NCBI GenBank assembly: GCA_051893155.1
Contig: JBJFGY010000077.1
Span: forward strand, 1-38,836
Direction of reading: 5' to 3'
From: Bacilli bacterium
GTDB lineage: Bacteria > Bacillota_I > Bacilli_A > RF39 > UBA660
DNA: 38,836 nucleotides
The notes under the pieces were generated by a model, which worked only from the letters and a program-made list of their open reading frames with translations, made no database searches and was not told where the DNA came from. This document shows, piece by piece, positions 1 through 23,133 of the stretch (the first letter of the stretch is position 1; every line of letters begins with the position of its first letter). Both the position numbers and the translations under genes were made by a program.

Positions 1-42
1 AGATTAATAAAATAATAATTTTTAATTTTTTCATTATTATTA

Positions 43-9531: not shown

Positions 9532-11629
9532 GTTTAATTTCCTCCATTACATATACTTCAAAGATATCATTTGGTTTAAAGTCATCATATTTTTCAAGAG
9601 TAATACCACATTCAAAGCCTTTTTTAACTTCTTTTACTTGATCTTTACCTCTTTGAATTGAAGAAATTTTAGTATCCGCTAAAACAGTTGAATCACGAAT
9701 AACACGCACATTACTATTACTTTTTACTAATCCTTCAGTAACATATACTCCCGCAATATTACCAACTTTAGAAAATTTAAATATTTGTCTTACTTCACAA
9801 GCACCAATTTTCTTTTCTTCAAATTTTGGATCAAGCATTCCTGTTAAAGCAGCTTCAATGTCTTCGACTAATTTATAGATAATTGTATAAAGTCTTATAT
9901 CAATTCCATATTCTTTCGCCATATCTTTTGCATCAGATGATGGTACTACATTAAATCCAATAACAATTGCTTTAGATGCACTAGCCAAAACTATATCGCT
10001 TTCAGAAATAGGTCCAATACCACTTCTTATGACTTTAACTTTAACATCTTCGACTTTGATTTTTTCTAAAGAACTTTTTACAGCTTCTTCGCTACCTCTA
10101 ACATCTGCTTTTAAAACTACTGCTATTTCTTTTTGACCTTTATTTATGCTATCAAATAATTCATCAAGTGAAAGTGATTTTTTTTCACCTTTTTTAGCAT
10201 CTTCAGCATTTTTTCTTTTAATAGAAATATTTTTTGCTTCTTCAATTGTTTCAAATGCCATGAATTTATCACCAGCTCGAGGAGTATCATTAAGTCCTGT
10301 TATTTCCACTGGAGTAGATGGACCAGCTTCAACAATATTTTCTCCCCTATCGTTTTTCATTGTTCTTACCTTTCCATAAGTTGTACCAACAACAACAGGG
10401 TCTCCTAAACGAAGGGTTCCATTAAGAATTAAAAATGATGCAATTCCACCAATATTCTTATCTAGTTTTTCTTCAATAACAGCACCCAAGGCATATCTTG
10501 ATGGATTTGCTTTAAGTTCTTTTACTTCCGCAATAGCAAGTATTGTATCTAGAAGTTTATCAACTCCTTCGCCAGTTTTCGCAGAAATATTTATAAATGG
10601 ATAATCTCCACCCCAACTTTCTGGAGTAATACCTTCCTCAGCCATTTGTGTATAAACTCTTTCAATATTTGAATCTGGTTTATCTATTTTATTAACCGCA
10701 ACAACGATTGGAACTCCAGCACTTTTAGCATGATCAATTGCTTCTTTTGTTTGAGGCATAACACCATCATCAGCTGCAACAATAATTATTACAATATCAG
10801 TTACACTTGCTCCTCTTGCACGCATTTGAGTAAAAGCAGCATGACCTGGAGTATCTATAAATGTAATTTTATTATTATCTTTAGTAATTTGATAAGCACC
10901 TATTGCTTGCGTAATTCCTCCAGCTTCACTTGAAGCAATATTTGAAGATCTTATATAATCAAGAAGTGTTGTTTTACCATGGTCAACATGTCCCATTATT
11001 GTAACAATGGCAGGTCTTGGGGCTAAATCTTCTTCATTATCAATTACTTCATAATTATCAAAATCTGAGATATCTTGGCTTTCTTTTCTTTTTAATGTTT
11101 TATTATAATCAAGAGCAACAATTTCAGCATTTTCAAAATCAATTTGTGCATTAATAGATAGCATTAATCCTAAACTAATTAATTTTTTAATTATATCATT
11201 TGAAGATACTCCTAAAACATTGGCAAAATCAGCAACTGTCATATTATTTTCATATAAAACAACATTATCTTCTTTACTATTACTCATTAATTTTGTTTTA
11301 TTTTTATACATTTGTTTTTTTAAATTTTTAAATTCACTATTATTACTATCTTTCTTCTTTAATTTTTGTTTAGAAGTAGCAACAAGAGAATCAGTTTTAT
11401 CGATATTTTCACTTTGCAAAACTTTTTCAATAACATCATCAATTTGATCTTCTTCTTCATAAGTAGTTTCTTTATTTGTACTAATCAAATTAATAGTATT
11501 ATCAAGCATAATAATATCATCATCAGACAAAATAGCATTTGCATCTGCTTTTATACCAAGTTCACTACATTTTCTAAGTACTTCCGCTACTGATAAATTT
11601 ACATCCTTTGCATAATCTTTAATATTCAT
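9524..11629 (-). CDS. infB: Translation initiation factor IF-2
   Basis: GHVDHGKTTLLD, DTPGHAAF, NKID and KEVKKGFECG motifs. Confidence 0.98.
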   Translation of the reverse strand: MNIKDYAKDVNLSVAEVLRKCSELGIKADANAILSDDDIIMLDNTINLISTNKETTYEEEDQIDDVIEKVLQSENIDKTDSLVATSKQKLKKKDSNNSEFKNLKKQMYKNKTKLMSNSKEDNVVLYENNMTVADFANVLGVSSNDIIKKLISLGLMLSINAQIDFENAEIVALDYNKTLKRKESQDISDFDNYEVIDNEEDLAPRPAIVTIMGHVDHGKTTLLDYIRSSNIASSEAGGITQAIGAYQITKDNNKITFIDTPGHAAFTQMRARGASVTDIVIIIVAADDGVMPQTKEAIDHAKSAGVPIVVAVNKIDKPDSNIERVYTQMAEEGITPESWGGDYPFINISAKTGEGVDKLLDTILAIAEVKELKANPSRYALGAVIEEKLDKNIGGIASFLILNGTLRLGDPVVVGTTYGKVRTMKNDRGENIVEAGPSTPVEITGLNDTPRAGDKFMAFETIEEAKNISIKRKNAEDAKKGEKKSLSLDELFDSINKGQKEIAVVLKADVRGSEEAVKSSLEKIKVEDVKVKVIRSGIGPISESDIVLASASKAIVIGFNVVPSSDAKDMAKEYGIDIRLYTIIYKLVEDIEAALTGMLDPKFEEKKIGACEVRQIFKFSKVGNIAGVYVTEGLVKSNSNVRVIRDSTVLADTKISSIQRGKDQVKEVKKGFECGITLEKYDDFKPNDIFEVYVMEEIKRA

Positions 11630-20918: not shown

Positions 20919-21587
20919 ATGGAAAACAAATTTAATTTAACAAAAAAGCAAAATGTATTTATCGCTAAAAGAAATATAGTTGATTATATATGGAAAAGTG
21001 CTAATTTGGAGGGCATTGAAGTTACATATCCTGAAACTCAAGTAATCTATGATGGTGGTATTGTTAATGGATTAACTGTTGACAAAATCATAGCTATTAA
21101 CAATTTAAAATATGCTTAGGAGTTTATATTAGAAAATAATGATGTTGATTATGATTATAATACTTTATGTCATATTCATAAATTAGTTGCGGATAAATTA
21201 GTATTAGACCAAGAATTAGGAAAAATAAGAACAACTCCAGTTAATATTGGTGGAACAAGTTGGAAACCTCAATTTCCTATTGAAAGTCAAATAAAAGAAG
21301 AATTAGAAACTTTATTAAATCAAGAAAATAAAACTAAAACTGAAATTGCAATAGAAATAATGCTATCATTAATGAGAAGACAAATATTTATTGATGGAAA
21401 CAAAAGAGTTGCAATGTTATTTGCTAATAAAATTATGATAGATAATGGATGTGGAATTATAACAATAGCACAAGAAAATCAAGAAGCATTTTATGAAAAA
21501 CTTATTAGATATTATGAAAGTGGTAATATGCAAGAATTAAAACAATGGATTTATGATACTTGCATAGATGGTATCAAATTAAATTAA
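20919..21587 (+). pseudogene. Fic/Doc-family gene interrupted by one in-frame TAG
   Basis: ORFs 20919-21119 and 21360-21587 are in the same frame, and the intervening sequence is open (EFILENN...GKIRTTPVNIGGT...). Fic-like motif QIFIDGNKRVA. TAG at 21117-21119. Confidence 0.85.
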
Positions 21588-21608: not shown

Positions 21609-21625
21609 TAACTAATGATATTTTT
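21591..21625. terminator. Bidirectional intrinsic terminator
   Basis: Perfect 14-bp stem AAAAATATCATTAG / CTAATGATATTTTT between convergent genes. Confidence 0.85.
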
Positions 21626-21926
21626 ATGTAACTTTTTTCCATTTAGCTTTTAATGTAATATCTTCGAATATTAAGGTATCTACATCAAAATAACTATCAT
21701 TTAAATACCAACCTTCGAAAATATAACCCTCTTTTACTGGATCAGGTGGTAATTCAACTTTTTTCGCAGGTCTTACTAATACACTTTCATAATTTTGTGC
21801 ACCATCTGTATCAAAACTTACTTTATATGTTTTTGTAAACCATATTACTAAAATAGCAAGTAATATTACAACCATACAAAGTAAAAATATATATGTAAAT
21901 TTATATGCTTTATTCACACTATTCAC
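21624..21926 (-). CDS. Small membrane-anchored protein with one InlB B-repeat (Listeria-Bacteroides repeat)
   Basis: TM helix followed by YKVSFDTDG...P.DPVKEGYIFEGWY...DITLKAKW. Confidence 0.88.
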   Translation of the reverse strand: MNSVNKAYKFTYIFLLCMVVILLAILVIWFTKTYKVSFDTDGAQNYESVLVRPAKKVELPPDPVKEGYIFEGWYLNDSYFDVDTLIFEDITLKAKWKKVT

Positions 21927-22026
21927 CCTATAAAAATAATATAATAAAAATTAGTAAGTGTCAATTAAATTACTTTTTATTTTTTTATCTATGTAACAAA
22001 AATTTTACATGGTTTATGACAAAGTA

Positions 22027-22055
22027 TTGAATTTTTTCATAAAATATAGTACATT
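22027..22055 (+). promoter_or_regulatory. Putative sigma-A promoter for the pseudoknot repeat RNA
   Basis: TTGAAT(22027-22032)-17-TACATT(22050-22055). No plus-strand CDS follows. Confidence 0.5.
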
Positions 22056-22088
22056 ATTATTGCATTTAAAAAAGTGCTTTAATAAGAA

Positions 22089-22187
22089 AATGTTTCTCGC
22101 TCCCGGATGGTGCGAGTAATAAATTATTCCGGTCGACAATGTTTCTCGCTCTCGGGTGGTGCGAGTTAATAAATTATCCCGAACGAA
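22089..22187 (+). ncRNA. Tandem pseudoknot repeat RNA resembling a type III (CptI-like) antitoxin
   Basis: Two adjacent 49/50-nt repeats. Each has stem CTCGC/GCGAG and a second stem CCGGA/TCCGG (copy 1) or TCGGG/CCCGA (copy 2), giving two compensatory base-pair changes. Confidence 0.7.
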
Positions 22188-22226
22188 AATATTTTGAAGA
22201 ATTAAAATAATACTTATAAAAAACAA

Positions 22227-22266
22227 AAAACTACCAATAAATGATATAAATTATCTTGGTAGTTTT
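22227..22266. terminator. Bidirectional terminator between the repeat RNA and the mscS-like gene
   Basis: AAAACTACCAA / TTGGTAGTTTT stem with an inner GATA/TATC pairing and T-rich tails on both strands. Confidence 0.75.
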
Positions 22267-22323
22267 AATTTTTCTTTCATTTTATTATGAGGTATTAAAC
22301 ACTTTTACTTTTTTTTTGCTAAA

Positions 22324-23133
22324 TTACTTTTTATTTTTATTATCTTCCATAATAACATTAAGATGATTATAAGGAATTTCAATATTATTTTTATCAAACT
22401 CTTTTTTTAGATTATAATTTAATTTATATAAATTATCATAACTTTGGGAAGTATCTTTACCCCATACCCATGCTCTTAATATTATCGCAGAGCTATCCCA
22501 TTTATATACTCTTACTTTAGGATATTCAATATTTTTTATATTAGGTTTTTCAAACTTATTAAGTTCTTTTTTAATAATATCAATTGCTTTATCAATATCA
22601 CTTTCATAAGAAATACCGTAATCCGCGAAAAGACAATAATCTGATTCAGTATAATCATTATTTTCAATTGAAAGTGTGTTTAAAATACTATTTGGAATTA
22701 TATATCTTTGATTATTATAGCCAAGTATTACAGTATGCCTCATTGATACCTCTAAAACAGTACCAGATATATCTTTTTCAATTATTTTAACTCTATCGCC
22801 AACTTCAAAAGGATGGGAAAATAAAATGCTTATACTTCCAAATAAATTACCTAAACTTTCTTTTGCTGCTAGACCTAAAATAGTAGTTAAAATACCTACT
22901 GCACTTAATAATGTAACTGATAGTGATTTAAACATATCAAATTTTGATAAACAAAGAGTTATTCCTATAGAGAAAATAATTACTGATTTTATTTTTTTTA
23001 AGAAAATTAAAATTGTTTTTAAGTTTTTATTATTTTTTTTATCAATTAATTTATTAATAAATTTTTCTAATATTAAATTTAATATATATGCTAATAAAAG
23101 TATAATAATAATGCTAATAATTTTTTCTATCAT
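22324..23133 (-). CDS. mscS: Small-conductance mechanosensitive channel family protein
   Basis: Three TM helices, GLAAKESLGNLFG, PFEVGDRV, IIPNS, GISYESDI and IEIPY motifs. Confidence 0.9.
   Translation of the reverse strand: MIEKIISIIIILLLAYILNLILEKFINKLIDKKNNKNLKTILIFLKKIKSVIIFSIGITLCLSKFDMFKSLSVTLLSAVGILTTILGLAAKESLGNLFGSISILFSHPFEVGDRVKIIEKDISGTVLEVSMRHTVILGYNNQRYIIPNSILNTLSIENNDYTESDYCLFADYGISYESDIDKAIDIIKKELNKFEKPNIKNIEYPKVRVYKWDSSAIILRAWVWGKDTSQSYDNLYKLNYNLKKEFDKNNIEIPYNHLNVIMEDNKNKK

Follow-up and report, generated by a model that had tools for sequence, protein, structure and literature searches.

Organization of the locus

The window analyzed here is a stretch of 38,836 nt, taken at its full length, from a 1.15-Mb genome (G000) with 24% GC that is assembled in 127 contigs and is 93.55% complete. 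Within it, an intergenic region is flanked by two minus-strand genes, one encoding a 100-aa Flg_new (Listeria-Bacteroides repeat) domain protein (21624..21926; Pfam PF09479, E = 1.6e-13) and the other an MscS-family mechanosensitive channel (22324..23133; Pfam PF00924 and PF21082). This region contains an unannotated GC-rich island, with 45% GC in 22089-22187 compared with 16% in the rest of the intergenic region and 24% genome-wide. The island is made up of two tandem repeats. A repeat search placed the copies at 22086-22130 and 22135-22179, with an offset of 49 nt and an ungapped identity of 80%, and also returned a second register with 50-nt spacing, the source of which is one extra T in the second copy. 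Read on the plus strand, the array is divergent from the Flg_new gene and convergent with mscS.

Upstream of the repeats, TTGAAT (22027-22032) and TACATT (22050-22055) are separated by a 17-nt spacer on the plus strand, and the preliminary description of this region took them for a promoter. When aligned to TTGACA-17-TATATT, the family promoter of the homologous arrays that precede a toxin gene (see below), the pair is found at the homologous position, but it is a weakened, degenerate form that matches only 8 of the 12 consensus positions and stays under the threshold of the promoter scan. TTGAAT was seen in none of 76 toxin-linked arrays, and TACATT in one. Next come a predicted 5' leader hairpin (22062..22077, plus strand), which is kept in relatives and in a paralogue on contig C116 of the same genome, and the two repeat units, at 22089..22137 and 22138..22190. 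Beyond the units, a hairpin at 22227-22266 followed by a T run (fold z = -5.3) agrees with the terminator proposed earlier. With T runs on each strand, the whole element (22227..22273) is a bidirectional terminator, conserved at the syntenic locus of a sister species (G020); it would have served the array, formerly a toxin gene (cptN), and the convergent mscS gene. A simple terminator scan gave no match here, the loop of this hairpin being longer than the limit of the scan. As had been noted, no toxin ORF follows the repeats and the next gene is mscS: between the array and mscS, the sole ORF of at least 30 aa is one of 36 aa that runs into mscS. A 70-aa ORF across the repeats on the minus strand (22014-22226) was treated as spurious.

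Structure of the repeat units

Each repeat had been proposed to fold as an H-type pseudoknot with two stems, S1 and S2. In unit 1, S1 pairs CUCGC with GCGAG (22096-22100/22112-22116) and S2 pairs CCGGA with UCCGG (22103-22107/22128-22132). In unit 2, S1 again pairs CUCGC with GCGAG (22145-22149/22161-22165), and S2 pairs UCGGG with CCCGA (22152-22156/22178-22182). The proposal held up when these helices were followed through 60 homologous units, 50 of them distinct: 90.4% of the pairing cells were paired, compared to 81.1% after shuffling, and none of 500 shuffles reached 90.4%. Sliding the partner strand by 1-3 columns reduced pairing in the 60 units to 28-53%. The stem-2 covariation looked for across homologues is present as double-sided changes at all five S2 pairs, and S1 pair 11-31 is never mismatched, being UA in 37 units and CG in 13. 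In 29 of the 50 units the outermost S1 positions do not pair, so that the conserved core consists of 4 plus 4 to 5 pairs. The covariation supports both stems, and each unit would be able to form an H-type pseudoknot with a short loop 1 and a long A-rich loop. The plus-strand orientation given at the outset is borne out by the G-U pairs in the homologous units and by the promoter; the minus-strand reading, in which the repeats form a leader of the Flg_new gene, was rejected. MFE folding of single units was not significant (z = -1.1 and -0.5; neither strand significant), and it is uninformative because nested folding cannot model a pseudoknot.

To describe how intact a unit is, near-invariant columns (>=97%) were defined on the 154 units of 78 intact-toxin arrays themselves, and a unit was called canonical if it had all 24 of these columns and 8/8 core pairs. 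Unit 1 of the window violates none of the 24 columns, has 8/8 core pairs, and scores 62.1 bits with nhmmer and 78.5 bits with the covariance model. Unit 2 retains every pair and near-invariant column despite its extra T at 22166/22167. This T is placed at the start of an A-rich loop that is otherwise invariant in length; no insertion is found at this point in any of the 154 toxin-linked units, and it is absent from L109 and L123, the toxin-linked arrays nearest to that of the window. Within the loop, columns 33, 35, 36 and 40 have an A in 154/154 toxin-linked units.

Different, individually matched S2 helices in the two units are seen in 69 of 73 toxin-linked two-unit arrays. In toxin-linked arrays, the mean number of S2 pairs is 4.55-4.74 of 5 within a unit, compared with 3.3-3.7 across units. 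This arrangement hints at selection against misfolding between neighboring units in the precursor RNA. Matched, differing S2 helices are an inherited trait of the family, and the compensatory pairs in the window are therefore not evidence of present selection. The exact S2 combination of the window is also found in 2 toxin-linked arrays.

Identification as a CptI antitoxin

Rfam contained nothing that matched the window at the gathering threshold, and a search of 21900-22330 at E up to 10 gave three chance-level matches (E at least 5.8). The identity of the repeats was instead apparent from a DNA search of their own genome, in which C116:9563-9671 shares the promoter region, the leader hairpin and two units. 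On the 3' side of the C116 array are, in order, a hairpin terminator, an RBS and an ORF (9743-10210) that matches NCBIfam NF047359, "type III toxin-antitoxin system CptIN family toxin", with 151.5 bits (cut-off 90), and the CptN of PDB 4RMO with E = 8e-19. This cptN (C116:9743-10210, equal to L009:1486-1953) carries an in-frame TAA at codon 64, where 8/8 aligned homologues have Lys, and the -35 element of the C116 array is AAGACT in place of TTGACT. Directly upstream of the C116 cptIN locus, at C116:8756-9359 (L009:499-1099, minus strand), genes for a RelB antitoxin (PF04221, E = 6.4e-10) and a YafQ toxin (PF15738, E = 8.4e-30) make this region a small toxin-antitoxin cluster.

The window sequence was matched in 31 of 61 related genomes. 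In addition, a toxin-anchored scan of named genome records was done, from which the best 80 of 386 toxin relatives were kept; all 80 were from uncultured gut Bacilli, MAGs of the "Tenericutes" or "Clostridium sp. CAG" type. An array was present in 78/78 of the kept loci (best 80 of 386) that retain upstream sequence, with ~55-135 nt between its end and the start of the toxin. Two arrays from intact loci, those of L109 and L123, share 93% and 92% identity, respectively, with the window array, and the sole recurrent gene on the 3' side of homologous arrays is CptN. By this homology to arrays that directly precede CptN genes, both in the same genome and in relatives, the window repeats are a genuine CptI antitoxin RNA of a type III toxin-antitoxin locus, and the CptI-like character ascribed to them in the preliminary description is confirmed at the level of sequence. 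Distant CptN relatives with 31-41% identity were also encountered on 17 plasmid records (H1-H17) from Clostridium perfringens, Megamonas, Fusobacterium and others; in the 2012 survey, cptIN was confined to chromosomes (PMC3401426).

Searching the genome with CptN and ToxN profiles, as had been suggested, turned up the broken CptN at C116 and two ToxN-family toxins, but no intact CptN. Combined tblastn and HMM searches of the assembly gave C116 as the only CptN match, and since that gene contains a nonsense codon, the assembly has two CptI arrays and zero intact CptN. A tblastn hit on contig C44 (E = 0.11) was discarded as a CptN candidate; by eye, it is an ordinary Fic-like protein with an HPFxxGNGR motif. 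The two ToxN toxins are intact (PF13958, 171.5 and 148.8 bits; C63:7594-8070 and C7:16689-17171, both minus strand; L125 and L126), and upstream of them are arrays of 34 nt x 3.2 copies on C63 and 37 nt x 3.0 copies on C7. Each thus has its own repeat array and no need for CptI.

Deletion of the toxin gene

Where a toxin is linked, GTTTTGAAAAC... comes after the last unit and forms the left arm of an internal terminator. A Rho-independent terminator between repeats and toxin was present in all 11 of the toxin-linked or broken-toxin loci compared, and in 4 more. For example, L123 reads ...GAAAAT GTTTTGAAAAC..., followed by the terminator, an RBS and a cptN gene ending in ...GGAAGAATTAAAATAA; the toxin ORF of C116 ends in ...CTTGAAGAATTAAAATAA. 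The window reads ...GAAAAT ATTTTGAA GAATTAAAATAA, with the remnant at 22191-22210. By comparison with the spacers of L123, L109 and L018, the segment at 22191..22198 (plus strand) consists of the first spacer bases and left arm of the internal terminator, and these first bases are all that the window keeps of it. The segment at 22196..22210 (plus strand) retains, from the deleted cptN, the stop and the four codons before it (E E L K). The 17 nt at 22194-22210 are identical to the 3' ends of the C116 and L123 toxin ORFs, and BLAST aligned window 22182-22230 with C116:10181-10230 at E = 1.6e-6. The deletion junction falls within TTGAA (22194-22198), where a TTGAA/GGAA microhomology joins the first spacer bases to the end of the toxin ORF, and the size of the deletion is ~530 nt. 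No CptN gene lies directly downstream of the window repeats, where neither tblastn nor HMM searches gave a toxin match and only the four codons and the stop are left.

A check of whether related strains carry a toxin between the terminator and mscS had been suggested. The sister species G020 has the same neighborhood (Flg_new, array, mscS, ruvB), and its syntenic locus is likewise toxin-less. In G020 the array is reduced to one hybrid unit, in which S2 is mismatched; beyond it, the internal terminator is represented by its left arm and loop, and the toxin by its last 11 nt. The two states are not derivable from each other, and the toxin was therefore lost twice at the same site. At another location, site B, three genomes have orphan arrays (L023, L032 and L035) with 21 nt surviving from the 3' end of the toxin ORF, and G007 has an intact toxin locus (L018) at that site.

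G000 and G020 are the only genomes in which Flg_new and mscS are neighbors. Seven other genomes of the genus (G005, G006, G008, G012, G014, G015 and G016) have a Flg_new homologue with no array match on its contig. In G017, a toxin-less array with a different unit subtype (G017:C2:106243-106825, L022) is located beside a Flg_new homologue at a window-like distance and in the opposite orientation, which could reflect a second independent insertion or an inversion. Elsewhere, two arrays, or array-toxin-array, are found in tandem (L030, L038/L061, L056, L087, L088, L117, L101 and L077-L083), and L019, L056, L087 and L101 have 4 fused units. Some toxins may have been lost by recombination between arrays.

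The following course of events can be proposed. An ancestral cptIN locus would once have been located between the Flg_new gene and mscS, and a ~530-nt deletion at the TTGAA/GGAA microhomologies would have taken the internal terminator, the RBS and all but the last four codons of cptN. This would have left the promoter, the leader hairpin, the two pseudoknot units and the old shared terminator. If still firing, the weakened promoter would produce an unprocessed RNA of ~200 nt, spanning roughly 22061-22266. As the assembly lacks an intact CptN, there would be nothing to process this RNA and nothing for it to neutralise. In our judgment the window array is quite probably the leftover of a cptIN locus with its toxin deleted, a young and functionless relic in early decay. 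This reading is grounded in the homology, the covariation, the deletion junction, the lack of an intact CptN in the assembly and the decay of toxin-less arrays as a class (see below); that the array lacks a function, and that the events took the order given here, is the most likely interpretation. Two further plus-strand ORFs of the window that adjoin the array, 20919-21119 and 21360-21587 (66 and 75 aa), may be the remains of a split Fic/Doc gene, making a second relic beside the CptI relic; the 75-aa ORF has a sub-threshold Fic/DOC match (19.6 bits, cut-off 24).

Decay of toxin-less arrays

For a comparison of classes, 121 non-redundant arrays were sorted by whether the toxin is intact, broken or missing. 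Canonical units made up 141/154 with an intact toxin, 22/26 with a broken toxin and 20/41 with no toxin. A strong promoter, TTGACN-16..18-TANANT within 130 nt upstream, was present in 72/76, 9/12 and 2/23 arrays, respectively. Between the intact-toxin and no-toxin classes, the Fisher test gave p = 6.6e-9 for units and p = 1.8e-15 for promoters, values that overstate the significance because related genomes are not independent (3 genomes share site B and 6 share site C) and because the columns were derived from the toxin-linked set. As a class, toxin-less arrays are decaying, having lost canonical units and the strong promoter. The decay can also be seen among the orthologous orphans of site B, each of which has private disruptive changes: S1 C->A in L023, S2 G->A in L032, and S1 G->A together with a loop change in L035. 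The counts suggest an order of decay in which the toxin goes first, then the strong promoter, and then the RNA units. The -35 "C" is lost in 21 of the 23 toxin-less arrays, and there is a small chance that this is active selection to turn down a costly RNA, not drift.

The window array most likely stands at an early point in this course, with a canonical unit 1 and intact helices in both units, together with a loop insertion in unit 2 and -35 and -10 elements that are off the family consensus. The preliminary description took the two differing S2 helices as a sign that the RNA is still under structural selection. That inference is not supported by the comparison, since such variants are an inherited family trait and the toxin-less class is losing its canonical units and promoter. 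An observation that goes against a relic is that the single unit of G020 has 0 differences in 54 nt from the matching halves of the window units, while the promoter and leader have 5 in ~68 nt (by eye). The identity of the units could be due to constraint, or equally to time during which both lineages still carried the toxin.

Frequency of toxin-less arrays in the family

To place the window in the context of its family, we used a sample of one genome per genus, amounting to 150 genomes and the window's own. The unit covariance model identified arrays in 30 of the 150 genomes, and NF047359 gave toxin matches in 22. With coordinates paired by hand, 45 arrays were obtained, of which 17 precede an intact toxin, 7 precede a broken or fragmentary toxin and 21 have no adjacent toxin; the 21 include 2 arrays that immediately precede another array and 1 case that is ambiguous (G152), and were counted regardless of how close the contig end was. 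Fifteen of the 30 array-bearing genomes had no intact CptN match. Arrays without a working toxin, which is the state of the window genome, are therefore common in the family. The opposite situation, a toxin without a detected array, was found in 4 places (G077, intact; G152, G155 and G172, fragments). The imbalance of 21 arrays without a toxin to 4 toxins or fragments without an array fits selective retention of the array as well as it fits a rule that the toxin must go first.

Alternative explanations

Other than an inert relic, the array could be kept by selection as a stand-alone antitoxin, acting against CptN brought in by mobile elements or phages or against a CptN encoded elsewhere. The canonical unit 1 and the two intact pseudoknots are compatible with this, as is the frequency of toxin-less arrays (21/45 in the one-genome-per-genus sample) and the fact that some orphans are common to several species (3 genomes at site B, 6 at site C). 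A single CptI repeat suffices for antitoxicity in E. rectale (PMC4627078), and the pseudo-ToxI of a phage shows that a lone type III antitoxin can work (PMC5086642). However, the assembly has no intact CptN, the class comparison shows a near-complete loss of the strong promoter (2/23, against 72/76 with a toxin) and fewer canonical units (20/41, against 141/154), and the orthologous orphans L023, L032 and L035 have private pair-breaking changes. In addition, the G020 orthologue has collapsed to a single hybrid unit with a mismatched S2, and CptI antitoxins are reported in a review to be highly toxin-specific (PMC5086642). A collection of 50,697 phage records contained no similar array or toxin at the DNA or protein level, and on that basis a phage origin, or a phage mimic, was also rejected. 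We thus regard selection for a stand-alone antitoxin as unlikely. A related and somewhat more doubtful proposal is that toxin-less CptI arrays, at low expression, provide a heritable immunity in which RNA decoys disarm incoming CptN; if true, this would explain the 21 toxin-less arrays against 4 array-less toxins or fragments, as well as the perfect unit 1 of the window. For the window array itself, there is a small chance of a retained immunity or anti-addiction role, and nothing that we found supports such a role.

The toxin might also not be truly missing, having been lost from view through an assembly or binning artefact or being a partner that our searches could not recognize. With 127 contigs and 93.55% completeness, the assembly leaves some room for this, and an intact CptN, which would count against the relic reading, could be located in the unassembled sequence. 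Against this, the junction is found inside a contiguous 38.8-kb contig with the last codons of the toxin in place, the sister genome is independently toxin-less at the same site, and only the 36-aa ORF running into mscS reaches 30 aa between the array and mscS. Such an artefact, or an unrecognized partner, is highly improbable. The remaining explanation, a cis-regulatory RNA such as a tandem riboswitch, or else an unrelated small RNA, transcribed from one strand or the other, draws on the resemblance of tandem structured domains with a promoter and a terminator to tandem riboswitches, and on the position of the repeats upstream of the Flg_new gene when read on the minus strand. Rfam gave nothing above chance level when matches up to E = 10 were admitted, homologous arrays have CptN in every case as their conserved partner downstream, and the G-U pairs and the promoter fit the plus strand. 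Moreover, the Flg_new homologue has no array on its contig in the 7 genus genomes mentioned above, and the array is in the opposite orientation in G017. There is next to no chance of a regulatory RNA or an unrelated small RNA here, and the riboswitch idea raised in the preliminary description can be set aside, along with that of a new class of pseudoknot sRNA, the repeats belonging to CptI.

The unannotated GC-rich island is thus a CptI antitoxin RNA, without an Rfam model, that was left behind by a toxin deletion; most likely it is a relic of the usual sort, from a system already known, rather than an RNA of a new kind. For the lineage, the most likely picture is one of frequent toxin loss, with the short RNA arrays outlasting the toxins and degenerating gradually. 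In the family to which these uncultured gut Bacilli belong, roughly half of the CptI arrays are toxin-less (21/45, with 7 more beside broken toxins), and surveys of type III systems that start from the toxin are blind to such loci. The dataset assembled here could be used to gauge how long an RNA antitoxin outlives its toxin, and whether orphan antitoxins protect.

Comparison with known type III systems

The two ToxIN loci on C63 and C7 of the same genome share the type III layout of repeats followed by a toxin. However, they have a different toxin family and unrelated repeats, and are therefore implausible partners for a CptI array. A parallel to an array without an adjacent toxin is the pseudo-ToxI of Pectobacterium phage TE, a stand-alone type III antitoxin-like array whose function has been demonstrated and which underwent expansion under selection for overcoming ToxN (PMC5086642). 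Pseudo-ToxI is phage-borne, whereas the window array is chromosomal, derived by deletion and shows signs of decay, with no phage relatives found. In a narrow search of the literature, which included the texts of PMC3401426, PMC5086642 and PMC12283969, we came across no printed description of toxin-less type III arrays.

The CptIN family was defined by Blower et al. 2012 (PMC3401426), and its structure was determined by Rao et al. 2015 (PMC4627078; PDB 4RMO). The latter describes the 45-nt E. rectale CptI as an H-type pseudoknot in which loop 1 has a single base and loop 2 is A-rich and 9 nt long, and a single repeat is enough for antitoxicity. Loop length matters: loss of 1 nt (U30) from the loop equivalent to that of the insertion in window unit 2, or a change of A29 to U, abolished antitoxicity (PMC4627078). 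The preliminary description had likened the window repeats to this RNA, and the likeness is upheld by eye. As in Eubacterium rectale CptIN, there are about two tandem H-type pseudoknot repeats with two short stems, a very short loop 1 and single-stranded tails; a promoter is located upstream; and, in the homologous loci, the repeats are succeeded first by a terminator and next by a CptN-family toxin. The long A-rich loop also has AUAAAU in common with E. rectale CptI, as judged by eye from a primer given in PMC4627078. In contrast, the window has no toxin and no internal terminator, and its sequence identity to the E. rectale repeat is limited to short motifs. The A-rich loop is 11 nt (12 in window unit 2) compared with 9 nt in E. 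rectale, and the unit length is 49-50 nt compared with 45 nt in E. rectale and 40-48 nt in the 2012 survey. In Table 2 of that survey, the repeats number 1.9-3.4 copies of 40-48 nt (PMC3401426). The window, with 2.0 copies, is within the range for number and 1-2 nt above it for length, and 49-50 nt is the usual unit spacing of the toxin-linked arrays in its lineage.

A precedent for the state of the window is found among the cptIN loci with truncated toxins, such as that of Bryantella formatexigens, which have full repeat sets and a partial toxin (PMC3401426). The direction of decay is the same in these loci and in the window. They differ in how far the loss has gone: 45-101 aa of toxin are left in the loci of Blower et al. 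(PMC3401426), whereas the window has only 4 codons, so that a locus like this one would be missed by any search that begins with the toxin.
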